From the sequence record KM501444: a DNA stretch of 64,000 bases. One strand, written 5' to 3'. The position numbers and the translations under genes are program-made. Positions 3,115 through 59,925 of this stretch are shown piece by piece (within the stretch, counting starts at the first letter, position 1; every line of letters starts with the position of its first letter). This stretch comes from Shigella phage pSs-1. The notes under the pieces are model-generated. The model ran no database searches, was not told the DNA's origin, and saw only the letters and a program-made list of their open reading frames with translations.

Positions 3115-3228
3115 TCACATAAATCCAAAGTAAGCGTTTAATACATCAATCATTAAAACGATTGGGAATATACTCAAAACTACTAGTATTATAACTACAT
3201 TCCATATAGCTTTAACAATCTTTTTCAT
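3115..3228 (-). CDS. small membrane peptide (37 aa)
   Basis: ATG 3226-3228 preceded by GGAGG and an early promoter; track ORF 3115..3363 is split by that promoter. Confidence 0.4.
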   Translation of the reverse strand: MKKIVKAIWNVVIILVVLSIFPIVLMIDVLNAYFGFM

Positions 3229-3254
3229 TTTCTGTTCCTCCGTAGTTGATAGGG

Positions 3255-3290
3255 TAATAATACCACAGAGGAACAGTCTTGTAAACAACT
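3255..3290 (-). promoter_or_regulatory. T4-type early promoter (minus strand)
   Basis: plus-strand taataataccac...(14 nt)...gtaaac = minus GTTTAC -35 and extended TATTAT -10; A/T UP element at 3291-3300. Confidence 0.6.
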
Positions 3291-3293
3291 TTT

Positions 3294-3392
3294 TTAAAAA
3301 TATTCGTAATAAATGTGAATACCAATCACCACTGCCGAAACTTGTGCAACCCACCACGCACAAGCAATAAGCACAGAATTCAAAATTTTCAT
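3294..3392 (-). CDS. small membrane peptide (32 aa)
   Basis: ATG 3390-3392, GAGG SD, translated by hand MKILNSVLIACAWWVAQVSAVVIGIHIYYEYF; below track cutoff. Confidence 0.35.
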   Translation of the reverse strand: MKILNSVLIACAWWVAQVSAVVIGIHIYYEYF

Positions 3393-3471: not shown

Positions 3472-3735
3472 TCATAGTTCAATCTCAGCGATTTTCATTT
3501 CATTACTATTAATAGCCGCTTTAAGACTATCTGAAAGAATTACATTCCAGTGGTCATTCATATGACCATTAACTAAGCGTGTAATTTCTTCGGGAGTGGA
3601 AAAATAAGGCGTATCAGACTCCCAATGCGATAGACCCAAGCGAGTATAAATCATACCTTCATCATCGCTAGAATATTCAACTGACACAAACTCATCAGTT
3701 ATTTTATGTTTAGCGTAATAAAATTTAAATTTCAT
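3472..3735 (-). CDS. hypothetical protein (87 aa)
   Basis: ATG 3733-3735 with GGAGGAG SD just downstream of an early promoter (track start 3828 lies upstream of the promoter). Confidence 0.5.
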   Translation of the reverse strand: MKFKFYYAKHKITDEFVSVEYSSDDEGMIYTRLGLSHWESDTPYFSTPEEITRLVNGHMNDHWNVILSDSLKAAINSNEMKIAEIEL

Positions 3736-3756
3736 TTTTGCTCCTCCGTAGCTGAT

Positions 3757-3792
3757 AGTTATATAGTACCACAGTCCTTGTGGTATGTAAAC
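3757..3792 (-). promoter_or_regulatory. T4-type early promoter
   Basis: atatagtaccac...gtaaac cassette with UP element gaaaatttttt. Confidence 0.6.
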
Positions 3793-3809
3793 CGTTTTGT
3801 GAAAATTTT

Positions 3810-4367
3810 TTAAATGGAAAGATACCATCCGTTGTAGTTGCTTTTTCTTACAACCTTACGAAGGTCTTCTCTATCACCGATGAACTTCGGAGTGTACTGG
3901 ATGACACCTGGGTGAATTTCTTTAGTGTTGAATATAATTATACAGTCAGCGACCTGATGATTCAGAATAGGCCCTAGATTTATTCCAGAACCATATGGAT
4001 ACTCTCCGCTGCATCCTGTTGTTACAGAAATCCAACGTGAGTCAGTTTGATGTGTCTTAACTTCTACACGAAGCCCGCAGTATCTTGGATGCGCCAATAC
4101 ATCCCATGCGTATGTATACGGGTCATTAACATCCTCTTGGCCTTTGTTAACATACCCGCTTAGCCAATCTGCTACAAAAAACTCTGCGTACACCGCGATA
4201 CGACATCTTTCGATAACTTCTGCTTTATCCTGGTTCGGGTTTTGTTTTAAAGAGTATCTTGCTGTATCAGCAATTTTGACCTTCATTTCACTAGTCAAGT
4301 CACTGTTCGATAGGGTAAATGTCGGAATCTGAAATAGTCTCTGTAAACCCGGATTCGTTTTCTGCAT
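3810..4367 (-). CDS. denB: endonuclease IV DenB
   Basis: 185-aa ORF at T4 denB position between ndd region and rIIB; size matches T4 DenB. Confidence 0.75.
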   Translation of the reverse strand: MQKTNPGLQRLFQIPTFTLSNSDLTSEMKVKIADTARYSLKQNPNQDKAEVIERCRIAVYAEFFVADWLSGYVNKGQEDVNDPYTYAWDVLAHPRYCGLRVEVKTHQTDSRWISVTTGCSGEYPYGSGINLGPILNHQVADCIIIFNTKEIHPGVIQYTPKFIGDREDLRKVVRKSNYNGWYLSI

Positions 4368-4629: not shown

Positions 4630-4646
4630 AATTTTTCCTTAAAACA

Positions 4647-4664
4647 AAAGGGCCGAAGCCCCTT
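4647..4664 (-). terminator. UUCG-tetraloop hairpin + U tract (intrinsic terminator on minus strand)
   Basis: aagggccgaagcccctt; minus strand reads GGGC-UUCG-GCCC followed by UUUUGUUUU. Confidence 0.55.
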
Positions 4665-4666
4665 AT

Positions 4667-4861
4667 TTATTTGAATTGTGCAATTCTTTTTTCTAAACAA
4701 TCTGCGTAAGATTTCATTGAGATGAACTGTGAAAGCAGTAATTCTTGCTCAACTTCATTAATCGTTAGAAACTTTGTACTTTCTAAAAATTTGCTCAGTG
4801 CATTAATTTTGAGCATTAATTGATCGTATTCTTCTTTTACTCGTGCTTGATAACCTAACAT
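4667..4861 (-). CDS. hypothetical protein (64 aa)
   Basis: ORF track; AAGGAAA SD upstream; flanked by two UUCG hairpins. Confidence 0.45.
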   Translation of the reverse strand: MLGYQARVKEEYDQLMLKINALSKFLESTKFLTINEVEQELLLSQFISMKSYADCLEKRIAQFK

Positions 4862-4889
4862 AATTTTCCTTAGTTAAGGGCCGAAGCCC

Positions 4890-5828
4890 TTATTTAAATT
4901 GTTCAGTAACGTCTTCAACTACTTCGTATTGGCAGGTACGCATTTTAGCATCATTGTAATCAATCGGAATTGATACTACATCGCGAGGATGTACTTTAAC
5001 TTTTACAACTCGACTGGTTGAACTGCCAAAGTGACGAATATAAGATTTAGAACACACATGCAGACCACGAGAACAAGTTTGTGTATCATCGTCATTCACA
5101 CGAGTACGTGGCATTTTAACTACTTTACCAGGACTGTTATCAAAAGTATTTGAATGACAATCAAAGTAATTACTGCGAACTACTTTCCAAGCATAGAAGT
5201 AACCATCTTCTGTGATTTCAATATCGTTTGCTACCAAGAAATCAAAGAGTCGAGATACCGCTTTTTGGCTCGGGTTTTCCAACAGATTTTCCAAGAACGG
5301 AAAATAAAATTCAAAGTTTTCGCCTTTTTCCATCGAATCGAGAATACGATCAACTAAACCAGATCGCAATTCAATATTTTGATAGAACAAGCTTCCACCT
5401 TCAATTCGAACATCACCGGAAATATATTTTTCAACAGCGCGACGAACATTAATTTTTTGTGCCGCTTCTTCCAATTTATCTGCAACAAGCAGATTAAGAA
5501 TTTCCTGGAAGTTTGAATGAGTATTAGGAGTTGCGTTATAAGTTACACCGTCAACAGTAATTGAAATGAATTTTTTAGATGCATTCCAAATAATGTCAGA
5601 TTTAGCAACTGGAGCAATAACTGCATCGCTATTAACTTTAACTGTAATATCACCACTAATAGTAACTTTAGAGCGCTCAGCTTCTTCAGCATTTTTCAAA
5701 ACACGACGGATTGTGTCAACCGATACACCTTGCCAATCAGCCAATTCCTGTTGGGTGTAATTACCACTTGAATACAGTTTGACAATTTCAGCTTGTTCGT
5801 TTTTGGTCAGGCATTTAATATTGTACAT
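4890..5828 (-). CDS. rIIB: rIIB protein (rapid lysis / membrane-associated)
   Basis: 312 aa, same length as T4 rIIB; adjacent to rIIA with 11-nt spacer; ATG verified. Confidence 0.9.
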   Translation of the reverse strand: MYNIKCLTKNEQAEIVKLYSSGNYTQQELADWQGVSVDTIRRVLKNAEEAERSKVTISGDITVKVNSDAVIAPVAKSDIIWNASKKFISITVDGVTYNATPNTHSNFQEILNLLVADKLEEAAQKINVRRAVEKYISGDVRIEGGSLFYQNIELRSGLVDRILDSMEKGENFEFYFPFLENLLENPSQKAVSRLFDFLVANDIEITEDGYFYAWKVVRSNYFDCHSNTFDNSPGKVVKMPRTRVNDDDTQTCSRGLHVCSKSYIRHFGSSTSRVVKVKVHPRDVVSIPIDYNDAKMRTCQYEVVEDVTEQFK

Positions 5829-10127: not shown

Positions 10128-10158
10128 AATATTATACTCCGGTAATCATAAAGCTAAA
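10128..10158 (-). promoter_or_regulatory. putative promoter for gene 39 (TATAAT -10 with MotA-box-like TTTAGCTTTA upstream)
   Basis: minus strand TTTAGCTTTATGATTACCGGAGTATAAT; one mismatch to MotA box consensus. Confidence 0.35.
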
Positions 10159-10174
10159 GGCCCGAAGGCCTTTT
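10157..10174 (-). other. UUCG-type hairpin (GGCC-CGAA-GGCC) after lipoprotein gene
   Basis: aaaggcccgaaggccttt inverted repeat. Confidence 0.5.
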
Positions 10175-10433
10175 ATTTAAAACGGATAGTCGAATCCTTG
10201 AAGAATAGACCAGAACATACGGTTCCTTCTACTTTCTGTCCGGTAGGTCCAATAGCACGAAATCCAGTATGTTGGAAATCATTTTCAGAGCAACCGAACC
10301 AGTTATATCCAGTGATTTCAATATTAGTAAAACCACTTGAAGACAAAACTTTGGTTGCATTATCAGCATCAGTACATCCTGCTAAAGACACTGCTAATAC
10401 TAATGCTGCGATAGAACGATTAATATATTTCAT
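10173..10433 (-). CDS. putative lipoprotein (86 aa)
   Basis: ATG 10431-10433; signal peptide with lipobox LAGC (MKYINRSIAALVLAVSLAGC). Confidence 0.55.
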   Translation of the reverse strand: MKYINRSIAALVLAVSLAGCTDADNATKVLSSSGFTNIEITGYNWFGCSENDFQHTGFRAIGPTGQKVEGTVCSGLFFKDSTIRFK

Positions 10434-10437
10434 AATT

Positions 10438-10809
10438 TCACTCAAATTTAATGGCTTGAAGAAGACTAATAATTCTCAAGCGACTTCTTTCATCTTTAAC
10501 CGTAAATGAAAGAGGGTCACCAGATTTCATAGTGATAGTGCATTCAAAATCAAAATCTTCGGGAACTTCTTCGAAGAAGTCAAATTCTTCATCATATATT
10601 AGAACATTACTCTGAAAACTGTGAAGAATTTTTCCATCATTTCCAGATGCTGTACTAATCATTGTAACGTTATTACCTTTCATATCTTCAACGATAAATT
10701 CGCTTGTAGATATTACGGCATTAATAGAACCATTCCTATAAATAGCAGAAAATAGATATTTCTTTTCTTCACCTTCGCGAATGCGATATTTCTTACCAAT
10801 TTTAAACAT
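10438..10809 (-). CDS. hypothetical protein (123 aa)
   Basis: ORF track. Confidence 0.45.
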   Translation of the reverse strand: MFKIGKKYRIREGEEKKYLFSAIYRNGSINAVISTSEFIVEDMKGNNVTMISTASGNDGKILHSFQSNVLIYDEEFDFFEEVPEDFDFECTITMKSGDPLSFTVKDERSRLRIISLLQAIKFE

Positions 10810-11625: not shown

Positions 11626-11740
11626 TACAATTTCCTCATTAATTGAACATTGGAGCGATGTGTTTCAGAAGAGTAGTAGCACCTTTGGCAAATTTTCCAT
11701 TTTATTCTCCAAGTTGTTTTCTGTATCAGTAGTTGATATT

Positions 11741-11775
11741 GATATAGTACCATAATCAACTACTGATGTATATAG
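11741..11775 (-). promoter_or_regulatory. early-promoter-like cassette (diverged -35)
   Basis: gatatagtaccat...gtatat plus UP element gaaaaaatttt; same cassette family as 29728-29759. Confidence 0.4.
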
Positions 11776-11797
11776 TTTTATGAAAAAATTTTAAACT

Positions 11798-14650: not shown

Positions 14651-14882
14651 ATTTAATCAGCAGCTTACAGACACTTTCATCTAATGTAATTACCGTGTCT
14701 GTATTACTATGATATGATTGTTTTTCAATTCGTTTAATTGCTAGTATAGTATCACTTATAAGATTAAGCTTATAAAGGAGCTCAGCTCCTGTTACCATAA
14801 CACTGAGGTTATCTTGCTTATCAGTATGCTTCTTTATACCATCTATTAGACGATTTAAATATTTTGAATTGATGTTAATCAT
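14622..14882 (-). CDS. hypothetical protein (86 aa)
   Basis: ORF track. Confidence 0.4.
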   Translation of the reverse strand: MININSKYLNRLIDGIKKHTDKQDNLSVMVTGAELLYKLNLISDTILAIKRIEKQSYHSNTDTVITLDESVCKLLIKFEEAIRGNN

Positions 14883-14888
14883 ATATCC

Positions 14889-16208
14889 TCACACATAAAA
14901 CACATCATAACGACCACGAGTGACACCAACATAAAGAAGCTGCTGAGCCAATTCAGCATCTGCATAATGAATACAAGGTGTGTAGATGAAAGCACGGTCT
15001 ACAGACATGCCCTGAGCTTTATGGAATGTTGATGCAGGAAGTGCTTTCACTTTACTAAACTGTGATTTAGCATCCCAAAAATCACTCCACGGAGCTTTTC
15101 CACCTTTATTCCAATTTTTATAAGTTTCTGCCGTTTTACCTAAAAATAAGTTAAACTTATACAGCTCTTCATCAGATGAAATTATTTTAATCTTTTCACG
15201 ATAATATTCATCATCGCCGTAAGTTTCTACTGTTAAATCCCAATGACGAATTAGATATTCTCCAGAAACACCACGAGCTTTAACAAATGTTGATGTATAC
15301 TCTGCTTCTATAATACGAACTAATTGTCCGTTATTAAAAATAATTTCTGACACAGGCTTTCCATCAATTTTATATGTTTTAATTAATGGTTCCTGCATTA
15401 CAATAATTTCACCAACGATAAAATCTTTATCAGTTTCAAAAATCTTTTTGCGAATAATGCTATTTAACTTATCAACAGATTTATTCGTAAATGCCATTAC
15501 GCGATTTTCAAACAAATCGTCTAGTGATTTTACGATTGAAAAATAATTTACCATAAAATCGCGTAAAGCGGTATCACCAGTAAATCCACGTACTCCATGC
15601 CCGTCAACAACTTTATCATAAATCCACTTACCGTTGCGAACATCAGTAGCTACATCAATAATAGGAGCATTACTGCGTTTAACTTCAGTGAGTTCACACT
15701 GATAAAAATCTTTATGTGTAAAGAATGGACTGATATAAGCAGTGTTTTCTCCTGGGTCAACAGGTCTAATTTGCTTATTATCGCCTATTCCAATTATAGT
15801 ACACCACGGCGGGATAGTTGAAAGCAGAATTTTAAATAGCTTTCTATCATACATTGACACTTCGTCGCAGATTAATACTCTGCATTTAGCTAAATCTGGT
15901 ACTTCTTTTTGTTCAAAAAGAACGTTTTCTTCATATGTTACCGGGTTAATTTTGAGAATACTGTGAATAGTACTCGCTTCTTTCCCCGATAGTTTTGAAA
16001 GAATCTTTTTAGCCGCATGCGTAGGAGCTGCTAAAATAATACCAGTTTCGCCCGTAGATATTAAGGCTTCAATGATGAACTTAGTAAGAGTAGTCTTACC
16101 AGTACCAGCAGGTCCATTAATAGTTACATGATGTTTCTTTTCTTTAATAGCCCTCATAACGATGTTAAAGGCATTTTTCTGGCCTTCTGTCAAATCATCA
16201 AATGTCAT
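14889..16208 (-). CDS. dda: Dda DNA helicase (SF1B)
   Basis: 439 aa; Walker A GPAGTGKT, MTFDDLTEGQKNAFNIVMRAIKEKKHHVTINGPAGTGKTT as recalled for T4 Dda. Confidence 0.92.
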   Translation of the reverse strand: MTFDDLTEGQKNAFNIVMRAIKEKKHHVTINGPAGTGKTTLTKFIIEALISTGETGIILAAPTHAAKKILSKLSGKEASTIHSILKINPVTYEENVLFEQKEVPDLAKCRVLICDEVSMYDRKLFKILLSTIPPWCTIIGIGDNKQIRPVDPGENTAYISPFFTHKDFYQCELTEVKRSNAPIIDVATDVRNGKWIYDKVVDGHGVRGFTGDTALRDFMVNYFSIVKSLDDLFENRVMAFTNKSVDKLNSIIRKKIFETDKDFIVGEIIVMQEPLIKTYKIDGKPVSEIIFNNGQLVRIIEAEYTSTFVKARGVSGEYLIRHWDLTVETYGDDEYYREKIKIISSDEELYKFNLFLGKTAETYKNWNKGGKAPWSDFWDAKSQFSKVKALPASTFHKAQGMSVDRAFIYTPCIHYADAELAQQLLYVGVTRGRYDVFYV

Positions 16209-20734: not shown

Positions 20735-20764
20735 ATTATACCATACTCATTGTGGAAAGTAAAC
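20735..20764 (-). promoter_or_regulatory. T4-type early promoter
   Basis: attataccat...gtaaac. Confidence 0.55.
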
Positions 20765-20777
20765 CGGTAAAATGAAA

Positions 20778-20799
20778 AAGGACTCTCGAAGGAGTCCTT
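20778..20799 (-). terminator. UUCG-loop hairpin terminator after soc
   Basis: aaggactc-tcgaag-gagtcctt; U-rich 3' flank on minus. Confidence 0.5.
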
Positions 20800-29314: not shown

Positions 29315-29695
29315 TCACTTAGTCAAATTTTTTACACATGAATTATAAGAATTCACTACATACTCCATCGGAGCATTTTTACCAGTACGCCATTGATAAT
29401 TATTAGCCCAATTAGCCCAAAGTTCGGCACAGTAGTTTTCAATTTTTTCTTCGCGTGTAATTACATCTGAATTACGATATGCTTGAGCAGATTCATCTGG
29501 ACGAATAGCTTCGTCAAAATTCGCCTGCATTTGTTCTACTGTCTGTTTTGGAGCTTCTTTATAACACTTAACATTAGGATTATAAAATTTGCTTGAACAA
29601 TTTACAATTTTTCCTGCATCGGACTGATTTATTACTGGTCCTTGAGCTACACATCCAGTAAGACCCAATGCAATAACCAAAATAGCGATTTTCAT
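29315..29695 (-). CDS. putative lipoprotein (126 aa)
   Basis: ATG 29693-29695; lipobox LTGC; early promoter upstream. Confidence 0.5.
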   Translation of the reverse strand: MKIAILVIALGLTGCVAQGPVINQSDAGKIVNCSSKFYNPNVKCYKEAPKQTVEQMQANFDEAIRPDESAQAYRNSDVITREEKIENYCAELWANWANNYQWRTGKNAPMEYVVNSYNSCVKNLTK

Positions 29696-29780
29696 TTCAT
29701 TCTCCAAATCCGTATCAGTTGATAGTTGTATAGTACCACAGAGGAACAGTCTTGTAAACAGTTTTGTGAAAAAATTTTAA
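29691..29780 (-). repeat. promoter/early-start cassette repeat (copy 1), near-identical to 55995-56080
   Basis: ttcatt..attctccaaatccgtatcagttgatagttgtatagtacca...cttgtaaac.gttttgtgaaaaaatttt shared between the two loci. Confidence 0.6.
29728..29759 (-). promoter_or_regulatory. T4-type early promoter
   Basis: gtatagtaccac...gtaaac. Confidence 0.6.
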
Positions 29781-29845
29781 TGAATTTACAGGACCTAGAA
29801 TCATCTATTTTTCCTAAGTATAGATTTATATTACTTGTATGAAAA

Positions 29846-29863
29846 AGGGACCCGGAGGTCCCT
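29846..29863 (-). terminator. hairpin terminator downstream of gene 43
   Basis: agggacc-cgga-ggtccct then U-run on minus. Confidence 0.55.
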
Positions 29864-29875
29864 AGATTTATTCTA

Positions 29876-32572
29876 TCAGCCAAACAGGAAGTCTAACGAA
29901 GCTTTTTCCTCATAGTCCATACCTGCCGATTCACACATACCAGCAAGAGGTTTAACAAACGATTTTTGGAACAAAGTTGAGTAGTCAATCCAAGATAGTA
30001 CATCAGAACGAATTTCTTTTGGAAGTTCTGTGCCTGATGGCCAAGCAATGCACTTATCACCAAATGGATTTCCTTCACGTAATGGAAGAACCATTACCTT
30101 ATTTCCATCCAAAATTGGAGCTACACCTAAACCGCTAACAGCTCGACGATAAGTTAGCACACCACGAATATGGAATGGACATTTAAATCCTGGCCAACCT
30201 TTATCATCATATTTCGCTATATCGTTCGCAGTTTTTACTTCAGCAATAACTTTATAGTCAAGTTGACGATATTCTTTCTCAAAGTTCTTGTAGTATTCTT
30301 GGACAGACTCTTCGCCTTCTTGAAGAATACGACGAATACTTTCTTCGAGAGCTTCTTGTACTGCTTTTGGTGTTGAACTCTGCTGAGTTTCCATACCCAT
30401 GATTTTTAAATGCGGTTCGGCAAATCGCTTATCTTCCATATCATAAACGTTCAGAGCATAACGTTTTTTCGCTTTCCAAAATCCACCGACACCCTTTGAA
30501 CCAAGTGGAGGGCAAGAAATAGCTTCACGGTCCATATGCATCAGATGCTCGCGGTTATTCATATAATCACATAACTCACGATATGCAGCATCAATCATAG
30601 GTTCCATCTTTTTCTTACCAAACTGATTCATGAATTCAACTAAATCATTTTGTTCTTTAAAGCGATCAAGACCTACTTTTTCAATAACTTTATCTACACA
30701 AACGTATACCGAATCAGTATCACCTGCTGCGATGAAATCTTCACCATTAGTTCCACACACTTTATTTAGATACTCATTAATTTTACGAGCAATCCACTGA
30801 ATACCAACTTGACCGAAAATTGTGATAGCAGTAGCATTTCGCAAATCATAGTAACGGAAATGAATATTACCAAGAGCACCATAAAGACTGTTAATAAGAA
30901 TTTTACGGTTCAACTGATTTGTGTTAGCAAGCGTAGCTGCTTTTTCACATTCTTCGATCAGACTGTTAAGAACAGATTCAGTGTAATTCGATAATTCGTT
31001 TAAGAAATCATCACTGAACTTAACATATCGTTCAACTTCTGGTTTAGTTGAACAAGACCCTGCACCTTTCATAATAATCTTTTTAATAGCTTCGGCATTC
31101 ATTTCTTCCGCGAACATTTTCTTTTTCCAATCTTTACGTTGGAAAAATACTTTAGCGATTTCCTTTGGAATGATACCTTCTTGGTGCTTATCATACATCC
31201 ATCCATTCGGAGAGCAAGAATATTCATCACTTGGCTTAGGAGCTGTTCCTGCGATATATTCATGAATTGGATGAACTTTAAACTGCCCACGAATAGTCTC
31301 AGGACTAATGTTAACCTGACGAATAATGCTAGGATACAGAGACGTCAAGTCAAAACTCATAATGTATCGACGAGCAATCGGTTTAGGTTCAAACACAAAT
31401 GCACCTGGAAAACTCTGTTTAACGTGCGAACCTTGTTGAGGAATAACCTTATGTTCACCTTTCAGTGAGTTAAAAATAATAGCATCCCAAGTTTTAATAG
31501 GACTCATTACACCAGAAAAAGGCATTTTAGCGTAATAAGACATACTTAAAACTAGATCGATAAACCCACGAATTTTATCAATTGCTTGAACTGATTCTAC
31601 GTCAATGATGTTATAACTAATGTATCGTTGATGATTAGTCTCACGAAGTTTATTAATAGGACCATCGTACGGCAATTTACCTTTTTTGGTTTCATGTTGA
31701 GCAACTGATTCCAAAGAGAACGATGGCAAATTAGTAAATGCGAATTTCTTGTACAAATCTAAATAATCAAGAATAGATACGCCATCAATAGAATAAATTT
31801 CTTTGCTACCGTACATATTTTGAATTAGTTTAGATTTTACTCGACCGATTGGAGAGAAGCGTTTCATACTACGTTCACCGAGAACCATTTTAACACGATT
31901 CATGATATACGGAACGTCAAATCCCTCAATATTCCAACCGGTAAAAATAGCAGGTCGTTTCTGTTCCCAGAGATTAATATATTCCATGAGCATATCACGC
32001 TCATTATCAAATGGCATATAAATTACTCGGTCAAGAATTTCTTGAGGAACTTCATCACCACCTTCACAGTCAAGCTTAGCAGCTAACTTTGCATCCCATT
32101 TTGATACTGAACCGTACATTGAATTCAACAAATCAAAGACGTAAAAACGATCGTCAATTGAATCATAATGAGTGATAGCATCAATTTCATATTCTGCTTT
32201 CATTGGGTCAGGAAATTTATCACCAGTAACCTCAATGTCACAGTTAGCTACACGAACAAATTTTCGGTCATAAACAATTTCTGAACCATACGTATCACTG
32301 ATGTAAGCAAGTTTAAAATCGTTCATACCGAGAGCTTCGAGACCGATGTCTTCCATTCGCTTCATCCAGTCTCGTGCATCTTTCATTGATGGAAATTTTT
32401 GAGGAGCACAATTTTTACCATAAATGTCTTTGTATTTTGACTCTTCCTTACAATGTCTAAACATAGTCGGAAGATATTCTACTTCACGGGTACGTTCCTT
32501 TCCGTTTTCATCAATATAACGTTCAACAATATTATTTCCGACTGTTTCGATAGAGATATAAAATTCTTTCAT
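29876..32572 (-). CDS. 43: DNA polymerase gp43 (family B)
   Basis: 898 aa as T4 gp43; MKEFYISIETVGNNIVERYIDENGKERTREVEYLPTMF. Confidence 0.93.
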   Translation of the reverse strand: MKEFYISIETVGNNIVERYIDENGKERTREVEYLPTMFRHCKEESKYKDIYGKNCAPQKFPSMKDARDWMKRMEDIGLEALGMNDFKLAYISDTYGSEIVYDRKFVRVANCDIEVTGDKFPDPMKAEYEIDAITHYDSIDDRFYVFDLLNSMYGSVSKWDAKLAAKLDCEGGDEVPQEILDRVIYMPFDNERDMLMEYINLWEQKRPAIFTGWNIEGFDVPYIMNRVKMVLGERSMKRFSPIGRVKSKLIQNMYGSKEIYSIDGVSILDYLDLYKKFAFTNLPSFSLESVAQHETKKGKLPYDGPINKLRETNHQRYISYNIIDVESVQAIDKIRGFIDLVLSMSYYAKMPFSGVMSPIKTWDAIIFNSLKGEHKVIPQQGSHVKQSFPGAFVFEPKPIARRYIMSFDLTSLYPSIIRQVNISPETIRGQFKVHPIHEYIAGTAPKPSDEYSCSPNGWMYDKHQEGIIPKEIAKVFFQRKDWKKKMFAEEMNAEAIKKIIMKGAGSCSTKPEVERYVKFSDDFLNELSNYTESVLNSLIEECEKAATLANTNQLNRKILINSLYGALGNIHFRYYDLRNATAITIFGQVGIQWIARKINEYLNKVCGTNGEDFIAAGDTDSVYVCVDKVIEKVGLDRFKEQNDLVEFMNQFGKKKMEPMIDAAYRELCDYMNNREHLMHMDREAISCPPLGSKGVGGFWKAKKRYALNVYDMEDKRFAEPHLKIMGMETQQSSTPKAVQEALEESIRRILQEGEESVQEYYKNFEKEYRQLDYKVIAEVKTANDIAKYDDKGWPGFKCPFHIRGVLTYRRAVSGLGVAPILDGNKVMVLPLREGNPFGDKCIAWPSGTELPKEIRSDVLSWIDYSTLFQKSFVKPLAGMCESAGMDYEEKASLDFLFG

Positions 32573-33020: not shown

Positions 33021-33584
33021 TTACCATTCCAATGCTAGTTTTTTGAGTTGTTTCTGTTCTTTTACATTCTTAGTCACTTCTTTTAAAAAATCATCCGTGA
33101 CTAAACCTTTTAGTTCTTTTAATACTAAAGGAAGTTTTCCATTTTTAGTAAGAATTGATTTATAGTTAATTGCATCATTTGTATTAACTTGATACCGCTT
33201 AGCAAGTAACTTAATAATCAATACTTCAGTAGAATCTTCGACCAGTTTTGCCCATTTACCATATCTTTTACCGCGAGGAACAGCAGCCATCAGATAATTA
33301 AAATGGGCTTCATCGCTTAAACCTGATCCAATTAAATTCATAGCATATACAGCTGGCATGCATTCAGGAAATTGTGATAATGCATTCTCAACCATGTATT
33401 TTGAATAATCTTTTTGAGCAATAGAGCATTTAGTTTTATTATTAATAGCTCCAATTATTTCAAAAAATTCATTTTCAGCTTTTTCCTTAAAAGAATCAGC
33501 AGCAGATTGGACAGCTGTCCAATCTTTTGAATACCAAGCAACTTGATGCTCGTTTAATTGAATATCATCTTCAAATAAGCTCAT
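33021..33584 (-). CDS. 62: clamp loader subunit gp62
   Basis: 187 aa as T4 gp62; synteny. Confidence 0.88.
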
Positions 33585-34545: not shown

Positions 34546-34576
34546 AATTTCCTCATTCAAGTTTTAGTGTAAATTT

Positions 34577-34593
34577 AAGGGCCGAAGCCCTTT
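34577..34593 (-). other. UUCG hairpin between genes 45 and 44
   Basis: aagggccgaagcccttt. Confidence 0.5.
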
Positions 34594-34594
34594 A

Positions 34595-35281
34595 TTAAAA
34601 ATCGTGGGTAGAATCAGCTTCAAGAGCTACTACATAATTCGCATGTTCACCTTCAAATTTAGCAGCACCTTGTTTACCTTTTGCCCAGAGCAGAAGTTTG
34701 TAATTTCCTGGTTGCATTTTCATATTTGCCATATTGATAATGAAATTAAATGTATTTTCACCATCATAATCACCAAGAGTCAAAGAATATTTAACACGAG
34801 TCAAAGCAGAATCTTCTACTTTATTAAAACCGTTAATTACGATTTTACCTTCTTTTACTGTGATAGCAATTGTATCAATCTGCAGACCACGAGATACACG
34901 CAACAGCTGTTGAAGGTCTTCAGCTTTAATTTCAGTAACAACAGATGCTACCGGGAATGGAATTGGTTTATTAGGAGCAACTACTGTACTCGGATCGGCT
35001 GCTGGCCAAAAAATTGTTGAACGAGCATCAGCAATTTTAATATTTCCATCTTCTGACTGGGAAATTTCTGCATCGTCATTAACTAGGGACAGAATACCGA
35101 GAAAACCGTTCAAATCGTAAATTGCTACATCAAAATCAATGGTGTCGGAAATATTTGCTTCCGCATAAGTTGTACCATTAACTGCGCGAGTCATAATAAA
35201 TTGACCAGATTTAAGCATAATACCAGAGTTAATAGTAGCGAAATTTTTAAGCAGAGCAGTAGTATCTTTAGACAGTTTCAT
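34595..35281 (-). CDS. 45: sliding clamp gp45
   Basis: 228 aa as T4 gp45; MKLSKDTTALLKNFATINSGIML. Confidence 0.9.
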   Translation of the reverse strand: MKLSKDTTALLKNFATINSGIMLKSGQFIMTRAVNGTTYAEANISDTIDFDVAIYDLNGFLGILSLVNDDAEISQSEDGNIKIADARSTIFWPAADPSTVVAPNKPIPFPVASVVTEIKAEDLQQLLRVSRGLQIDTIAITVKEGKIVINGFNKVEDSALTRVKYSLTLGDYDGENTFNFIINMANMKMQPGNYKLLLWAKGKQGAAKFEGEHANYVVALEADSTHDF

Positions 35282-39125: not shown

Positions 39126-39286
39126 ATATCAAGAACCGTCATTGAAATGCAAAATAAAATTATTGAAATAAATCCATCTGGAGTGCTAAAGAACCCAATC
39201 CAACATGCTCTAGTGAATAGATAAAATGCGAGAAAAAGTATCACATATCCAAGAAATATCATTATATCAAACTCCGTATAAAGCTA

Positions 39287-39303
39287 AAGGGCCGAAGCCC
39301 TTT
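39287..39303 (-). other. UUCG hairpin at alpha-gt stop
   Basis: aaagggccgaagcccttt. Confidence 0.5.
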
Positions 39304-40504
39304 ATTTTGTAATAATGTCAAACTGTTCTTTAAAGCAGAAGCTTGAATCTTGATGCTGATACAAAAATTCATAAGCTTTTTCGCGTTCACGGTCATAAAG
39401 AGCTCGGTCAGATGACAGTTCTTTAATACGCTCAAATGTTGATTCCATGTCATTTTCATCAAACCAAACGATACCGCTATCATGAGAAATTAACGGAGTA
39501 TTATCAACACGGAATTTTAAATTTTCGCCAGTAGATTTCCAAAATACTGGAATTGTTCCACATGCACCAAGCTCGAGATGAGTATATTCTAAAGAACGTT
39601 GTAGATATTTTTTGTCCAACTTACTCAACTGATAACCAAATCCGGATTTACTCATGCGTTCAAGCATTTCGCTATTTACATAACGGTCAAGAATTTGCGT
39701 TGGCAAATTAGGAGCAATTTTAATTTGGTCTACTTGATGAAGACGATAATACTCATATGGAATTCCTTTTTCTTTAATAGGAATGAACGCTGGAGAACGT
39801 TCCAGACCTTCCATAATAGTACTTAGTCCTGCAGGTTTAAGATGTTTTTCGTGAAAATCAAACATCTGATAAAAACCTTTCCATGTAGTCGTACGACCAA
39901 TCCAACGGTTGACATTCATGTTAATTTCAGAAACATCTTTCCAATAGGTTGATCGAACTTTCGCAATATCCATAGGAGGCTGAAAGTTGTATACAGTCGG
40001 TGCTTCTTCAATATCATCAAACAGAGAAACTGTTTCTGGATACCATTCTTTCATCAAAACTTTATTAAAATCGCCATTATCAGAATGGCTAAAAATAACA
40101 TCAGCTCGACGAACAGTTTCTTCTAATCCCAAATTTCGGCGCAAAGAAAGAGAAGAATGGTCATGTTGATAAACTACAACACGAACCGAAGGTTTAATGT
40201 TATCAATAATTTTTTTATAGTTATTAATAGTGTCTTCTTCGACTGAAGTAGCAGGAACTGAATTGATAATTAGAATATCACAATCATTTACCAGCTTAAG
40301 TGTTTTATCGTATTCTTTTGCCAATAAAACCGGAATTGAAAATGATTTATAATCATGCGCGCAATTACGAGTAAATGATTTATCTTTAGCATAAACCAAA
40401 GTTACTTCATGACCATTTTTAATAAACCAATCACGCTGCTCAAGAGAAAATTTAGTTACGCCACAACCTTCAAGACCTCGAGCCATAAAAATGCATACTT
40501 TCAT
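39302..40504 (-). CDS. a-gt: alpha-glucosyltransferase (hmC DNA)
   Basis: 400 aa as T4 alpha-gt; synteny between 47 and 55. Confidence 0.85.
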   Translation of the reverse strand: MKVCIFMARGLEGCGVTKFSLEQRDWFIKNGHEVTLVYAKDKSFTRNCAHDYKSFSIPVLLAKEYDKTLKLVNDCDILIINSVPATSVEEDTINNYKKIIDNIKPSVRVVVYQHDHSSLSLRRNLGLEETVRRADVIFSHSDNGDFNKVLMKEWYPETVSLFDDIEEAPTVYNFQPPMDIAKVRSTYWKDVSEINMNVNRWIGRTTTWKGFYQMFDFHEKHLKPAGLSTIMEGLERSPAFIPIKEKGIPYEYYRLHQVDQIKIAPNLPTQILDRYVNSEMLERMSKSGFGYQLSKLDKKYLQRSLEYTHLELGACGTIPVFWKSTGENLKFRVDNTPLISHDSGIVWFDENDMESTFERIKELSSDRALYDREREKAYEFLYQHQDSSFCFKEQFDIITK

Positions 40505-41998: not shown

Positions 41999-42076
41999 TT
42001 TCACCTCTTAGCTCAATTCATAGATCTATTATATCATAATATTTGAAGATCTATCTTAAAGCATAGAGGATATCAG

Positions 42077-42346
42077 TTATCTAAGTAAGCAGTATGCTTG
42101 GAACACTTTCTCCATCATCTTTTTAAATTCATGAATATCTATGTAATGACTAGTTAAATCAGCGTGATATAAAAAGTCTAAAAACTTTTCATGTGTGCTA
42201 GCATATTCACTTTCATTTAATTCAGAAACATGGCTTTCCCAATATCCAACCCCAGTCTTATTTGGGAAAAATGAAATTTTCATGTATTGATCAACATAGA
42301 AAATTCCATAATTTTCAATAGTAATAGAAATATTAATTAATTTCAT
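42077..42346 (-). CDS. hypothetical protein (89 aa)
   Basis: ORF track. Confidence 0.45.
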   Translation of the reverse strand: MKLINISITIENYGIFYVDQYMKISFFPNKTGVGYWESHVSELNESEYASTHEKFLDFLYHADLTSHYIDIHEFKKMMEKVFQAYCLLR

Positions 42347-42887: not shown

Positions 42888-42939
42888 ACATTATCCTCAA
42901 TTACATTAAAATTTTATTATCCAAAAAGGGCCGAAGCCC

Positions 42940-43140
42940 TTAGCTAAACTTTTTGGCACCCTTCCAGCCTTCGTACATCATTGCGGCTGATATTAATATT
43001 GCTCCTGAGCAACTTGAATATTTGTGATTCCAAAACCAGTTTAGAAAAACTTCGTCATCAATACCTTGGGCTATCATATTTTCAAAGAACTGGCGACGAG
43101 ATTCAGCAATTCGTTGCGATAATTTAGATTCAGGATTCAT
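42940..43140 (-). CDS. hypothetical protein (66 aa)
   Basis: ORF track. Confidence 0.4.
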   Translation of the reverse strand: MNPESKLSQRIAESRRQFFENMIAQGIDDEVFLNWFWNHKYSSCSGAILISAAMMYEGWKGAKKFS

Positions 43141-47341: not shown

Positions 47342-47518
47342 TCAAGTATTGTAAAACATTCGATGCAATCGCTTATATTGCCGAATCATCTTTTTAGTAG
47401 GACGAGAATAAGTTCCTACACAAGTGGTCATATTAGAGTCGGTAGGACTTCCTTTAATAAAAAGTTTCCAAACCTTACCACCATTTAACTTTTCAGTATA
47501 AATTAATTCGGTTTTCAT
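47342..47518 (-). CDS. hypothetical small basic protein (58 aa)
   Basis: hand-translated ORF; ATG overlaps upstream gene stop. Confidence 0.35.
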   Translation of the reverse strand: MKTELIYTEKLNGGKVWKLFIKGSPTDSNMTTCVGTYSRPTKKMIRQYKRLHRMFYNT

Positions 47519-47982
47519 TAAAACGCTCGGTCAGAAAAAGAATTTTGAGTTTCAAGCCATTCAATATATTCTGCCGCAGCTTGCATTAAATTTCCTTCAT
47601 AACCATCGTTATTTTCTTGTGCAGCTAATTTAGCTAATGCGTATGAAATACGTTCACCTTGAAAAGCGGCTTCAGGTTTCCGAATAACTTGACTAGTTCG
47701 TTCTACAACTTCTTCAATTTCGCCATTTTCTGCGGATTCAGTATTCCACAAGCACCAATACGTAATTGGCTTATCATAGATGTTAATAATCTTTCCATCA
47801 GAAAGTTCAATTTCAATAATTCCAGTATCAGGTTCTATGTCATCTTCACATTCTTTTGCAAGTTCACGAACTTTAAAGACAGTACCTGCACTAAGTTCCG
47901 GCCAGTAATTACACAGCCCTTTATCAGCACGATTAATTCTAAACCACTTATCTACTGCAATCATGTCCCATCTCCATATCAA
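47518..47982 (-). CDS. hypothetical protein (154 aa), pin region
   Basis: ORF track. Confidence 0.45.
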   Translation of the reverse strand: MIWRWDMIAVDKWFRINRADKGLCNYWPELSAGTVFKVRELAKECEDDIEPDTGIIEIELSDGKIINIYDKPITYWCLWNTESAENGEIEEVVERTSQVIRKPEAAFQGERISYALAKLAAQENNDGYEGNLMQAAAEYIEWLETQNSFSDRAF

Positions 47983-54038: not shown

Positions 54039-54566
54039 TTATGCGAGTACCGTCTTTAACCGTTCTTCAAACTTCCGAAGAGTATTTTGGCGTTCAGCTC
54101 TTTGCTTTTTGTAAGTTTCAATACGCTCTGAAATGAGAGAGTATCGTTCATTTACTGATTCTTTCATAAAATCAGGAATTTCACGAGAAGCTTTAATCTC
54201 ATCAAATTTATCAATAACAGCTTGCTCTTCAGCAATTAAGTTATCATACATTAAAATATCTTTCTTGATGAACTCAATATCTTCTTGAGTTACACGAGAT
54301 AATTTAGATGCTTTATCCTTTTTGTACTGTTCGTTAGTATCACGAGACCAGTGTAATGTACGATTTTTATTCGTATTCTTGTAAATTTCTACAATACCAA
54401 TCTCATCAATAATAACGATCCAATTCCAACGGGATTTGTAAATTTGTCCTCCATCAACAGTGATTTCACCTCCGATTGAGATGTCATTAAAGAACTTGCT
54501 TTGTGCCTCAGATTTAAATTTACCATCGTTGTAATTTACCAAGTTGAAAATATCTTTAGCGTTCAT
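54039..54566 (-). CDS. hypothetical protein (175 aa)
   Basis: ORF track; early promoter upstream. Confidence 0.45.
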   Translation of the reverse strand: MNAKDIFNLVNYNDGKFKSEAQSKFFNDISIGGEITVDGGQIYKSRWNWIVIIDEIGIVEIYKNTNKNRTLHWSRDTNEQYKKDKASKLSRVTQEDIEFIKKDILMYDNLIAEEQAVIDKFDEIKASREIPDFMKESVNERYSLISERIETYKKQRAERQNTLRKFEERLKTVLA

Positions 54567-54592
54567 TTTGTGTTCCTCCGTAGTTGATAGTT

Positions 54593-54624
54593 GTATAGTA
54601 CCACAGAGGAACAGTCTTGTAAAC
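54593..54624 (-). promoter_or_regulatory. T4-type early promoter
   Basis: gtatagtaccac...gtaaac. Confidence 0.6.
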
Positions 54625-54626
54625 CA

Positions 54627-54941
54627 CTAAAAGAAACTTCTTTCACAATTTTTTCCACTGAACCATGCACTTACCGCTTTCTTAGTCTCAGGAGCAGTGT
54701 TATCCATAAACCATTCAAAGGCAGCCTTTTTATGATTCTGGAGGGCTTCTCGGGCTTTAATCTGCTCACGGTCTATTAACACTAACATATGAGCCTTTCT
54801 TGTCACCATGGGCTTCTTATGATTTTTTGAATACTCCCAGTCATTTGTCCATCGCATTGTCGTTGCGAACTGAAATACTGCTTCTTTAATTTTAGTTTCG
54901 TAAATTTCACGAGCCTTTGAGTATAACATCACTACCTCCAT
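54627..54941 (-). CDS. hypothetical protein (104 aa)
   Basis: ORF track. Confidence 0.4.
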   Translation of the reverse strand: MEVVMLYSKAREIYETKIKEAVFQFATTMRWTNDWEYSKNHKKPMVTRKAHMLVLIDREQIKAREALQNHKKAAFEWFMDNTAPETKKAVSAWFSGKNCERSFF

Positions 54942-55030: not shown

Positions 55031-55999
55031 TTATTTCAAAAGAGTAACCTCAGCAATTTCTTCCCAACCGTTTTTGTCGGTCATAATAAAGTCAGCAAGA
55101 TAAAGAGCAGTACGCAGTGAAACATTGCGTAAACGATTAACATTAACTTTCATCCATGATAATGCTTTATAAGTTTCTTCATCAGAAAGACCGCGCTTTT
55201 GCATCATGTCAGTTGAAAGAATAACATCTTCAACCCTGACCATAATTTCTTCATTAGTGTGAACACCCAAATCTAAATAAACTGAGCGGGACACTAATGC
55301 TTGTAAATGTGGAGCAAGTTTAGTACCACGGTCTAATTCGCGGTCAATGTCAACGTTTGTGATAAAAACAATCGTTCCTTTAAATTCAAACTCACGCTCA
55401 ATGCCTTTTTCTTCTAAGTAAGAAGACGCAGTGCTCCAGCAGACTTTACGGGTCTCTCCGGTGTCCAGAGCAGCTTTTAGAAGATTAAGAATGTCCATAT
55501 CAGAGAAAACATCCACATCATCAATCAAAAGGACAGAATTCTCTTCACGATTATTCCAAAGCTGCTCATAAAGACCAATACCAGAGATTTTACCATTAAT
55601 GCTTTTATATTCAATGTATCCAATATCATTTGCTTTATTTAAAGCTTTATCTAAAGAATACGTTTTACCAATACCTGCTGCTCCTGAGATAATTAATGAA
55701 CGAATATTTCCGTTAATAATACCATTCGTCATCATTCCCATAACATTAAATCTTTTATTAATGCGGGTTTTCATATCTTCATACGATTCTTTAACTTCTT
55801 CAACTTTTACACCATCATATGAAATATCTGATTTGTAAACCCAAACACCGCGACGTTTACCGTCAATTTCAACAAAAACTTTACCATCTCCTTGTGCATC
55901 TACCGGAGCATTATCTGGGAACCATTCGCCTAAGAGCTCAAAAGTTCCAGAGATTTCTTTACCGAAGTAGATACCCTTATTGATAGTTACAGTTTTCAT
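55031..55999 (-). CDS. AAA+/P-loop ATPase (322 aa)
   Basis: ATG 55997-55999 with GGAG SD; Walker A GAAGIGKT, Walker B LLIDDVD; about 110-aa N-terminal extra domain. Confidence 0.6.
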   Translation of the reverse strand: MKTVTINKGIYFGKEISGTFELLGEWFPDNAPVDAQGDGKVFVEIDGKRRGVWVYKSDISYDGVKVEEVKESYEDMKTRINKRFNVMGMMTNGIINGNIRSLIISGAAGIGKTYSLDKALNKANDIGYIEYKSINGKISGIGLYEQLWNNREENSVLLIDDVDVFSDMDILNLLKAALDTGETRKVCWSTASSYLEEKGIEREFEFKGTIVFITNVDIDRELDRGTKLAPHLQALVSRSVYLDLGVHTNEEIMVRVEDVILSTDMMQKRGLSDEETYKALSWMKVNVNRLRNVSLRTALYLADFIMTDKNGWEEIAEVTLLK

Positions 56000-56080
56000 T
56001 TTATTCTCCAAATCCGTATCAGTTGATAGTTGTATAGTACCATAAAGCTTTATGCTTGTAAACTGTTTTGTGAAAAAATT
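55995..56080 (-). repeat. promoter/early-start cassette repeat (copy 2), near-identical to 29691-29780
   Basis: shared about 85-bp sequence including SD, -10, -35 and UP element. Confidence 0.6.
56031..56063 (-). promoter_or_regulatory. T4-type early promoter
   Basis: gtatagtaccat...gtaaac with UP element. Confidence 0.6.
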
Positions 56081-56093
56081 TTGAAATAAAAAA

Positions 56094-56111
56094 GGGAGCC
56101 CGAAGGCTCCC
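56094..56111 (-). terminator. UUCG hairpin terminator
   Basis: gggagcc-cgaa-ggctccc followed by UUUUUUAUUU on minus. Confidence 0.55.
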
Positions 56112-56113
56112 TA

Positions 56114-56359
56114 TCATTTATAATAACTTCGATGGTTTTCAAGATAAACCCTCTCAAGGAAGTCATCCCAAAAACACATGTCTACTTTTTGCTGCATACC
56201 GTTCTTAGAAGCTTCAATGGATGCTGCTTCTACTTGATCGACCACATCTTCCAAAAACTCTTGAACAGTTTTAAATGGATGTTTACCCAACTTCACGTCG
56301 AGAATAAATGGAGCGTCTTGAAGTGGATAGACTAAGTCACCAGTTTTGTAAATTTCCAA
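56114..56359 (-). CDS. hypothetical protein (81 aa); frame overlaps 3' end of upstream nucleotidyltransferase
   Basis: ORF track start is TTG with no clear SD; frame stays open about 29 codons upstream into the NTase gene. Confidence 0.35.
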   Translation of the reverse strand: MEIYKTGDLVYPLQDAPFILDVKLGKHPFKTVQEFLEDVVDQVEAASIEASKNGMQQKVDMCFWDDFLERVYLENHRSYYK

Positions 56360-56388
56360 TAGTTGGAGTCCACCACGGCAAGCATGAC

Positions 56389-57126
56389 TCAGAGCTTTCC
56401 AGTCAATGCCCTCATTCGCTTCAGCCTTACGAGCACGTCGCCGTATTCAGCATCAAGTTTATTCAAAGATTGCTTAAGCTCGATAAGAGAAAGCGTTGTT
56501 TGATATTTACGACCCAACACAGTGTAGAACGTTTGTGGGCCTGTTTTCTCATGATTATGGAATACCCATTCGCAGAACTCGTTCTCTGGAAGACGATGCT
56601 TAATATCTTCAACTTTAGTTCGACGCTGCTTAATGGAACCGTCTTCTTGGTAATCAACCCATTGCTCAGGGATTTGATTAACTACTTTCAATATATCACG
56701 TAATGCGGCCAAACGAGAACCTTTAACACCGTATTTAGAAGCTTGCTTGCGAACATATCCTAAGTAGGATTTCATGTTGGTCGTATAAAAACGAGAACGG
56801 TTGTCTTGAATAAACTTCCATACATCAGGCAAATCAGATTTAACTACTAGTTCCGGTGGAGTGTGGAGCATATCCAATGCTACAGTTTCACCATCTGCTG
56901 CTAATTTAAAGAAATACTTAAGACTGTATAGTTCATGGTCAATATCATCTTTAGTGTTTTTAGATGATGTGTTGTTAGTGTTTTTACTCATATGCTCTTT
57001 AACATTTCCAATAAGAATATCGCGAGCAGGAGGAACAAAGATTTCTTTAAAATCTACATCAGATTCTGGAGTAGAAGTTCCATAAAGATGACTACCAAAA
57101 TAGCTTTTCATTACTGTTTTCATCAT
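56389..57126 (-). CDS. pol-beta-superfamily nucleotidyltransferase (245 aa)
   Basis: N-terminal GSHLYGTSTPESDVDF fits the G[SG]-x(9-13)-DxD NTase signature. Confidence 0.55.
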   Translation of the reverse strand: MMKTVMKSYFGSHLYGTSTPESDVDFKEIFVPPARDILIGNVKEHMSKNTNNTSSKNTKDDIDHELYSLKYFFKLAADGETVALDMLHTPPELVVKSDLPDVWKFIQDNRSRFYTTNMKSYLGYVRKQASKYGVKGSRLAALRDILKVVNQIPEQWVDYQEDGSIKQRRTKVEDIKHRLPENEFCEWVFHNHEKTGPQTFYTVLGRKYQTTLSLIELKQSLNKLDAEYGDVLVRLKRMRALTGKL

Positions 57127-59899: not shown

Positions 59900-59925
59900 G
59901 ATGTTCTCCTCTTTATCCGATAGTT

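Follow-up and report, generated by a model that had tools for sequence, protein, structure and literature searches.

The near-identical blocks dispersed over a 64,000-nt stretch of the Shigella phage pSs-1 genome (record KM501444, hereafter the window) are very probably composites of a T4-type early promoter, its 5' leader and its translation start, with copies that are related by descent and patchwise exchange and that serve as occasional crossover points. Both the blocks and the hypothesis that they shuffle accessory genes are already known, as T4 early promoters and through the published model of promoter-early stem-loops (PeSLs; PMC2839356, PMC4122927). Re-derived here from the raw sequence, the cassettes correspond to the published concept of portable expression units and recombination linkers in T4-like phages.

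Cassettes of the window are T4-type early promoters by sequence and position

The closest match of the window was Shigella phage sb3 (99.0%), with coordinates equal to those of the window. Three segments compared with Tequatrovirus (T2/T4/T6-like) genomes gave hundreds of matches of 95-99% identity, and by sequence the window is assigned to Tequatrovirus (T2/T4-like). Nearly all called genes lie on the minus strand, and two variable regions are included, the denB-ndd region in the first 5 kb and the nrdC.x/mobD region at roughly 49-59 kb. A repeat search of the window returned one repeat family, with members at 3216-3305, 3722-3811, 11703-11792, 29689-29778, 54554-54643 and 55993-56082. The pair 29689-29778 and 55993-56082, 89% identical over 90 nt, was the strongest internal repeat of the 64-kb window (self-BLAST: 90 nt, 88.9%, E = 4e-21) and agreed within 2 nt with the blocks of about 85 bp that the original prediction had placed at 29691-29780 and 55995-56080. 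Self-BLAST of the whole window gave nine significant internal matches, eight of them promoter regions and the ninth a 22-nt palindrome.

Read on the minus strand, all five flagged copies have the same order of elements: an A/T-rich tract, GTTTAC, 18 nt ending in TGG, TA(C/T)TAT, a leader of 28-34 nt with a GGAG-type Shine-Dalgarno (SD) sequence, and ATG. The SD, ATG, TGn-extended -10, GTTTAC -35 and A/T-rich UP element had all been read correctly in the original prediction. The cassette of imm.1, on the minus strand, begins with an A/T-rich UP element at 29760-29785 (AAAATTTTTTCACAAAACT; 18 of 19 positions identical to the nrdC.10 copy), followed by the T4 early-type -35 hexamer GTTTAC (29754-29759), an 18-nt spacer with the TGn of the extended -10 at its end (29736-29753, AAGACTGTTCCTCTGTGG), the -10 hexamer TACTAT (29730-29735) and a 34-nt leader (29696-29729, ACAACTATCAACTGATACGGATTTGGAGAATGAA) with the SD GGAG at 29702-29705. 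Transcription would start about 7 nt downstream of the -10, near 29723. The gene behind this promoter (29315-29695, minus strand) encodes a lipoprotein-like DUF5481 protein (MKIAILVIALGLTGC...) with an LTGC lipobox. Gene 43, encoding the DNA polymerase (29876-32572), is followed by an intrinsic terminator hairpin detected by a terminator scan (AGGGACCTCCGGGTCCCT + TTTTT; 29846-29863, minus strand), which is separated by 87 nt from the downstream -35 of the imm.1 cassette and is conserved in T4 and ime09.

The nrdC.10 cassette (55997-56092, minus strand) consists of the UP element (56064-56092), the -35 (56058-56063), a spacer containing the palindrome CATAAAGCTTTATG (56040-56057), the -10 (56034-56039), the leader (56000-56033) and the ATG (55997-55999). 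A terminator hairpin (AGGGAGCCTTCGGGCTCCCT + TTTTTT; 56093-56112, minus strand) stands directly upstream. Its gene (55031-55999, minus strand) encodes a putative P-loop NTPase with weak AAA_14 and nSTAND matches below the Pfam cut-offs (AAA_14 score of 23.5 bits against a cut-off of 27). Thus the claim that the cassettes flank a lipoprotein and an AAA ATPase was borne out for the former, while the latter assignment is weak.

The shorter versions, predicted at 3225-3300, 3730-3812 and 54566-54625, proved to be real as well, and all are on the minus strand. They are the nrdC.8 cassette (54564-54650; -35 at 54619-54624, -10 at 54595-54600, ATG at 54564-54566), the cassette downstream of denB (3733-3826; -35 at 3787-3792, -10 at 3763-3768, ATG at 3733-3735) and the ndd.5-like cassette (3226-3320; -35 at 3281-3286, -10 at 3257-3262, ATG at 3226-3228). 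The cassette downstream of denB is predicted to drive an 87-aa accessory ORF (MKFKFYYAKH..., 3472-3735, minus strand) that is absent from T4 and whose 3' end contains an 18-nt sequence, AATGAAATGAAAATCGCT, identical to the SD-start region of imm.1. The sixth family member, at 11703-11792 (minus strand), is degenerate, with TATATAC in the -35 region, TGGTACTAT as its -10 and a leader of ...ACTACTGATACAGAAAACAACTTGGAGAATAAAATG.

In the whole window, the pattern GTTTAC-N15-19-TANNNT was found at 22 sites, 21 of them on the minus strand, against 4.25 ± 2.4 in shuffled sequences (both strands). A scan with the generic sigma-70 consensus had no power here (83-101 sites versus 83-87 in shuffles), and the enrichment of promoters in the window was limited to the T4-type pattern. 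Tracts of the AAAATTTTTTCACAAAAC type were present upstream of the -35 sites at 29759, 56063, 3792 and 43808; the UP tract at 54624 is weaker and overlaps the end of nrdC.9. The five copies have one-to-one orthologs in T4, at 27080 (upstream of imm.1), 55384 (nrdC.10), 53943 (nrdC.8), 166807 (ndd.4/ndd.5 region) and 167086 (downstream of denB), which are sites of the early-promoter type co-directional with prereplicative genes. The orthologous sites are labelled 'predicted early promoter' in the fPS-90 record, and no promoter features are annotated in the T4 record AF158101.

From T4-type early promoters, sigma-70 RNA polymerase initiates within the first minute of infection, and they are shut off after about 3 min. 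Catalogues of the T4 early promoters (P_E) are reportedly those of Liebig & Ruger 1989, Wilkens & Ruger 1996 and Miller et al. 2003. T4 early promoters comprise UP, -35, TGn and -10 elements plus additional consensus regions (Hinton 2010, PMC2988021), outcompete host promoters and are in some cases boosted by Alt ADP-ribosylation (PMC2988021). In early leaders, a GGAG SD followed by A-rich sequence forms the cleavage context of RegB/S1 (PMC3014915). We read the blocks as early promoters with leaders because of the T4 orthologs, the fPS-90 annotation, the Hinton review and this RegB/SD context, and they would be expected to be active as promoters in pSs-1. As established for T4, host sigma-70 RNA polymerase would bind the UP element, the GTTTAC -35, the TGn and the -10 right after infection and begin transcription about 7 nt past the -10. 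The leader would then provide the GGAG SD and the A-rich sequence after it, in T4 also the RegB/S1 cleavage context, and the GC-rich hairpin with its T-run just upstream, where present, would insulate the unit from upstream transcription. The window copies showed no essential difference from T4 early promoters, with which they have in common the GTTTAC -35, the 17-nt spacing from TTTACA to TAnnAT, the TGn, the A/T-rich UP element, the orientation and the map positions. For annotation, this reading gives start sites and transcription units for imm.1, nrdC.8, nrdC.10 and the 87-aa ORF.

Identity of the copies extends beyond the promoter consensus

The T4 early-promoter consensus is unusually long (PMC2988021), which would favour pure functional convergence, that is, promoters of maximal strength with an optimal SD/RegB context that share no history and take no part in recombination. 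As a consensus-only null, a weight matrix was built from 20 promoter sites and sets of 20 sequences were simulated 3000 times. The best pair of each set had on average 59.5 of 110 positions in common (sd 2.2), with a maximum of 70. The imm.1/nrdC.10 pair shares 86 of 110 ungapped positions, more than in any of the 3000 simulations, and we conclude from this difference that the identity of the cassettes exceeds the promoter consensus. Self-alignment, proposed with the original prediction to see whether the identity stops at the short consensus, showed that it does not. By part, the two copies agree at 21/30 positions in the UP element, 6/6 in the -35, 10/18 in the spacer, 6/6 in the -10 and 39/40 in the leader; such a leader, nearly identical between two unrelated genes, also speaks against convergence. 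The copies at 54624 and 3286 have 74/110 positions in common.

All copies lie on the minus strand, co-oriented with transcription, and their ends are fuzzy, with a point of identity decay that differs from pair to pair. Identity among copies extends through the ATG and one or two codons (ATGAAAA), and similarity between cassettes ends no more than 7 nt from the start codon.

The imm.1 cassette is a mosaic. Its spacer is identical (18/18) to those of 54624 and 3286, and its UP element and leader match 56063, whose spacer differs. At 54624 and 3286 the spacer would be constrained by its predicted pairing with the SD region (described below), a point in favour of convergence, but the imm.1 copy has the same anti-SD spacer without a matching leader. 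This partnerless spacer is therefore likely the product of patch exchange from another cassette. The nrdC.8-type spacer (CCTCTG) at imm.1 was common to 2 of the 10 relatives compared (sb3 and PM136); the other eight differ, including T4, whose imm.1 copy has another spacer variant. Alignment of the imm.1 locus from 11 phages revealed that the upstream sequence is of two types and the spacer of several, that the leader varies by a 3-nt ACT indel and that only some phages have an extra ORF. These variants co-occur in nearly all combinations; although about 20 nt apart, ACT indel and extra ORF are found in all four.

Portable cassettes bound insertions and replacements among relatives

A 22-nt core spanning the -10 and the leader, TGGTACTATACAACTATCAACT, had 21 exact occurrences in six IMG/VR T4-like contigs. 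It precedes at least eight unrelated genes, namely imm.1, nrdC.10, nrdC.8, motA, the 87-aa ORF, the ndd.5-like ORF and two ORFs absent from the window. Together with the T4-orthologous early promoters and their leaders, this identical core supports the idea that the cassettes can act as portable regulatory modules.

Gene content was also compared across related phages, as had been suggested, and inserts bracketed by pieces of the cassette were found in BW-1, EPIMAM01 and fPS-90-like phages, in addition to a difference between T4 and the window. In BW-1, a module of about 580 bp with its own hairpin and promoter core lies between nrdC.11 and nrdC.10, bracketed by a 39-nt repeat that comprises the T-tract, UP element and GTTTAC. 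At the same nrdC.10 site, EPIMAM01 carries another, different insert of about 460 bp, bracketed by a 21-nt repeat of SD+ATGAAAACT. In fPS-90, G8, PM136 and others, an ORF for a secreted protein of 78-85 aa stands between the imm.1 cassette and imm.1, bracketed by an 8-nt ATGAAAAT repeat. Replacement of imm.1 by another ORF was considered for this locus and rejected, the event being an insertion ahead of imm.1. For the 87-aa ORF (3472-3735), the homology between the window and T4 breaks inside the leader of the 3792 cassette. In T4, the cassette downstream of denB is chimeric: its 59-nt -10/leader segment is 58/59 identical to the T4 imm.1 leader, and both have T4's lineage-specific ACT indel. 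Ectopic conversion from imm.1 would explain this chimera, and gain or loss of the 87-aa ORF between SD-ATG repeats would do so equally well. In RB3, a 'promoter + ORF' module has been inserted directly in front of the -35 at 23787, and a replacement relative to the window begins exactly at the start codon (11700) of the degenerate member 11703-11792. The 56063, imm.1, 87-aa ORF and 23787 cases are indels between close relatives with the crossover inside the element. These documented cases were found by looking at cassettes and carry an ascertainment bias.

The inserts bracketed by duplicated cassette pieces and the ACT indel common to the T4 chimera and the T4 imm.1 leader are further evidence against convergence, which we regard as unlikely and, with the results above, as largely refuted here. 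Part of the extra conservation may nevertheless be functional rather than historical, through spacer-SD pairing (54624, 3286) and the RegB/SD context. In the favoured reading, descent with patchwise homologous exchange would relate the copies, whose sub-blocks (UP, spacer, leader, SD-ATG) match different other copies. Since T4-type recombination requires only short homology, the dispersed, co-oriented copies could occasionally serve as crossover points, and small 'promoter + ORF' modules would be inserted, deleted or given a new leader at the cassettes. We infer the direction and mechanism of each exchange event, and any mini-circle intermediate, from the sequences compared. For phage engineering and evolution, the documented junctions mark places where small modules were slotted in with their neighbours undisturbed.

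Rearrangement breakpoints are not enriched at cassettes

The window from 5829 to 50680 was aligned with T4, RB3 and fPS-90, and every gap of at least 40 nt was listed, with the cassette zone set from -75 to +45 of the -35 coordinate. Among 27 distinct indel or replacement events, three had an end in a cassette zone, one of them a homing-endonuclease insertion. Gene junctions with a cassette were affected in 4/11 cases and others in 24/70 (Fisher p = 0.57), so no enrichment at cassettes was found in this segment against three relatives, in a survey whose power is limited by a small sample, by the position of the two most cassette-dense regions outside its range and by approximate gene calls. 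Cassettes are thus used as junctions and are not demonstrably preferred over other gene boundaries in this segment. The lack of enrichment is a point in favour of convergence, and it is a caution against calling the cassettes preferred junctions. The proposal that cassettes provide homology for recombination accordingly holds in the form that they can act as such, given four cassette-bracketed inserts or differences, and a role as hot spots is not supported (3/27 events, p = 0.57). Overall, the sequence comparisons lend the recombination role qualitative support.

Many of the rearrangements are homing-endonuclease genes, including segF, mobB, mobC, mobD, I-TevII and a seg-like ORF in ESh34. 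Two candidates for cassette-mediated events were rejected. The fPS-90 event at the 8286 cassette is an 886-nt homing-endonuclease insertion with a 28-nt duplication, and the 730-bp insert near nrdC.10 in ESh34 carries a GIY-YIG-like endonuclease ORF.

A dedicated recombinase is improbable

The cassettes could alternatively be the sites of a dedicated site-specific recombinase that moves 'promoter + ORF' mini-circles, in the manner of a mobile element or integron. Mini-circles have been detected in RB49/phi1 by inverse PCR, by authors who left a dedicated recombinase open (PMC2839356), and in BW-1 and RB3 whole 'promoter + ORF (+ hairpin)' modules are inserted. However, the position of the junction varies, lying in UP/-35 in BW-1, in SD-ATG in EPIMAM01 and in ATGAAAAT at imm.1, and the flanking repeats, from 8 to 39 nt long, are pieces of the cassette itself. 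Variable junctions and repeat lengths indicate homology-driven exchange rather than a fixed core site. The uniform orientation with transcription and the fuzzy ends also count against a recombinase, as do the lack of a linked recombinase gene and of terminal inverted repeats around the cassettes, the latter noted without a dedicated inverted-repeat search. With a single orientation, identity that decays at variable points and flanking repeats of variable length, the cassettes do not match a transposon or MITE, which would have terminal inverted repeats, target-site duplications of fixed length and defined ends. They resemble integron gene cassettes (attC + ORF) in functional analogy only, as ORF-sized, repeat-bounded modules with a proposed circular intermediate; unlike those, they come without an integrase or an attC-like imperfect palindrome, each module has a promoter of its own and the position of the junction varies. 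We therefore hold a dedicated recombinase to be very improbable.

Relics of segmental duplication, in which each gene was copied along with its promoter and the coding sequences diverged afterwards, would account for the identity through the ATG and the next one or two codons, but this explanation was rejected as having next to no probability on the Pfam results, since the downstream proteins are unrelated (a DUF5481 lipoprotein, a P-loop NTPase and DUF-less proteins of 175 and 87 aa), and on how abruptly similarity stops, no more than 7 nt away from the start codon.

Some of the cassettes read as complete PeSLs

Arbiol et al. 2010 defined PeSLs in RB49/phi1, where adjacent elements form mini-circles by recombination; the crossovers fell within the AT-rich region, in the stretch from the -10 to the ATG, or in that from the SD to the -10 (PMC2839356). 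PeSLs were extended to T4/PST (and KVP40/nt-1), with the ndd region as an example, by Comeau, Arbiol & Krisch 2014 (PMC4122927). The T4/PST PeSL is described as an AT-rich region, TTTACW-N17-TAYWAT, an SD and an ATG with a stem-loop just upstream, and degraded 'half' PeSLs are counted too (PMC4122927).

The window copies are composite units of an AT-rich region, early promoter, SD and start codon that fit this description, including the published consensus. Like the PeSLs of T4-like phages, they are dispersed, co-oriented and clustered in the denB-ndd and nrdC-mobD regions, and they sit at the junctions of indels, the crossovers lying in the AT-rich part or in the segment from the -10 to the ATG. 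Terminator-like hairpins were located directly upstream of 56063 (56093-56112), 59957 (59973-59990) and 20764 (20778-20799). The first of these reads, with the nrdC.10 promoter, as a complete PeSL. A further complete PeSL is the candidate at 59900-59990 (minus strand), made up of the hairpin 59973-59990 and a promoter with its -35 at 59957; in its upstream part it matches a copy at 20753-20794, with 93% identity over 42 nt. The terminator scan found no upstream stem-loop at 3286, 3792 and 54624, three of the five flagged copies, which abut upstream coding sequence, and at 29759 the hairpin is the distant one after gene 43. Some copies, not all, would thus qualify as complete PeSLs. The window differs from the published PeSLs in that only part of its copies have an upstream stem-loop, and in that breakpoints were not enriched at them in the 45 kb compared with three relatives.

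Spacers of two promoters are predicted to pair with their own SD regions

A hairpin of 14-15 bp is predicted at 54624 and 3286, in which the promoter spacer (CUGUUCCUCUGUGGU) would pair with the SD region (ACUACGGAGGAACA) and the loop would contain the -10 and the start site. For nrdC.8 (54624), the predicted partners are the spacer arm at 54600-54613 and the SD region at 54571-54584, over 14 bp (dG -22.4 kcal/mol, z -3.8), and the ndd.5-like copy (3286) forms 15 bp (dG -23.2 kcal/mol, z -4.6). Folding of 29759, which has the same spacer, gave no complementary leader for this 'orphan' anti-SD arm (z +1.1), and folding of 56063 gave no spacer-SD structure. The pairing suggests a functional reason for spacer conservation at 2/5 copies (54624, 3286).

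Leader hairpins that sequester the SD have been documented for the late-promoter genes e, soc, 49 and I-TevI (PMC3014915). As in those genes, the SD of 54624 and 3286 would be in the 3' arm of the predicted hairpin and the promoter start in the loop. Unlike in those genes, the internal promoter here is of the early sigma-70 kind, with its own -35/-10 spacer as the 5' arm, and 29759 and 56063 are without an SD-sequestering structure. We found such a design described in reviews for late promoters only, not for early ones, the older T4 literature being outside this scope.

Among 23 early promoters of the window and T4, five spacer-SD duplexes beat shuffled spacers (p <= 0.05), and spacers combined with their cognate SD regions outscored permuted combinations (p = 0.005). 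For -10-spanning hairpins as a whole the enrichment was only weak (8/20 versus 19%, p = 0.03), and they are not claimed as a feature of the class. We tentatively suggest, while considering it rather doubtful, that a minority of T-even early promoters might double as translational gates, with the spacer as the 5' arm and their own SD region as the 3' arm; candidate cases are nrdC.8, ndd.5, mobD.2, T4 regB and T4 65799. Transcripts from the proximal promoter, which do not contain the 5' arm, would then be translatable, and read-through RNA from upstream would be silent. Such a gate, if true, would strictly confine those proteins to the immediate-early period and explain part of the 'extra consensus' in early-promoter spacers. 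The nrdC.8 promoter of a Dhakavirus has the same design in a different sequence (CUCCAGUAG pairing with CUACUGGAG), and other hairpins straddling the -10 were observed in Mosigvirus and Gaprivervirus.

Promoter mosaics, palindrome and terminator hairpins

Two segments of the window lying 39 kb apart (20753-20794 and 59946-59987) share 93% identity over 42 nt, and this match spans a hairpin, a T-run, CATTTTACCG, GTTTAC and TTTCCA. The -10 and leader of these hairpin-plus-promoter copies are unlike, and the two copies are therefore another mosaic pair. Outside the promoter regions, the sole significant internal repeat in the window was a perfect 22-nt palindrome with the core GATTGGACAGCTGTCCAATC, located at 33504-33525 within the replication-gene cluster.

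A strong terminator hairpin, AGGGAGAGCCGAGGCTCTCCCT followed by TTTTT, occupies 14-35 on the minus strand. Comparison with IMG/VR contigs placed the promoter of the motA cassette (early promoter, leader and start region) just outside the window, past its start, and by the same comparison the hairpin is the stem-loop of this cassette. Tetraloop terminator hairpins of the GGGCC-GAAG-GCCC type, with conserved flanks, form a second dispersed repeat family, found at 4630-4667, 4876-4903, 10148-10178, 34559-34604, 39269-39314 and 42908-42953. A passage in Arbiol et al. (PMC2839356) mentions T4 deletions associated with GGGC/GCCC motifs (Mosig et al. 1998).

Insertions and the nrdC region

Six small segments of about 140-370 bp each are present in the window but not in T4 (10435-10807, 14659-14889, 42071-42332, 47389-47527, 58652-58980 and 61891-62264). 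They are mostly gene-boundary inserts of ORF size without a strict GTTTAC promoter; a promoter-like site at 59037 directly precedes the start of the insert at 58652-58980. Shigella phage ESh34 (L008 1822-2553) carries a 730-bp insertion in the nrdC.10/nrdC.9 interval, corresponding to window 55014/55050, with an ORF for a 239-aa GIY-YIG-like (seg-type) homing endonuclease. It illustrates the second major origin of indels here, alongside the promoter cassettes.

The neighbouring nrdC.11 (nucleotidyltransferase, RlaP domain; 56114-57126, minus strand), one undivided gene of 336 aa in T4, is divided by a frameshift relative to T4 into two ORFs (56389-57126 and 56114-56359): the gene is a pseudogene, or else the frameshift is a sequencing error.

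Spacer-SD pairing in early promoters

In some early promoters, the SD region of the promoter's own gene was complementary to the -35/-10 spacer. The predicted hairpin, with 14-15 bp, a dG of about -22 kcal/mol and the start site within its loop, lies on the minus strand at 54571-54613 (nrdC.8 promoter cassette) and 3232-3275 (ndd.5-like cassette), and further sites of complementarity are found at T4 62797 (regB promoter), T4 65799 and window 59145. Such pairing would sequester the SD in read-through RNA and leave it free in RNA begun at the proximal promoter. The nrdC.8 promoter of a Dhakavirus retains the spacer-SD design with a different sequence.
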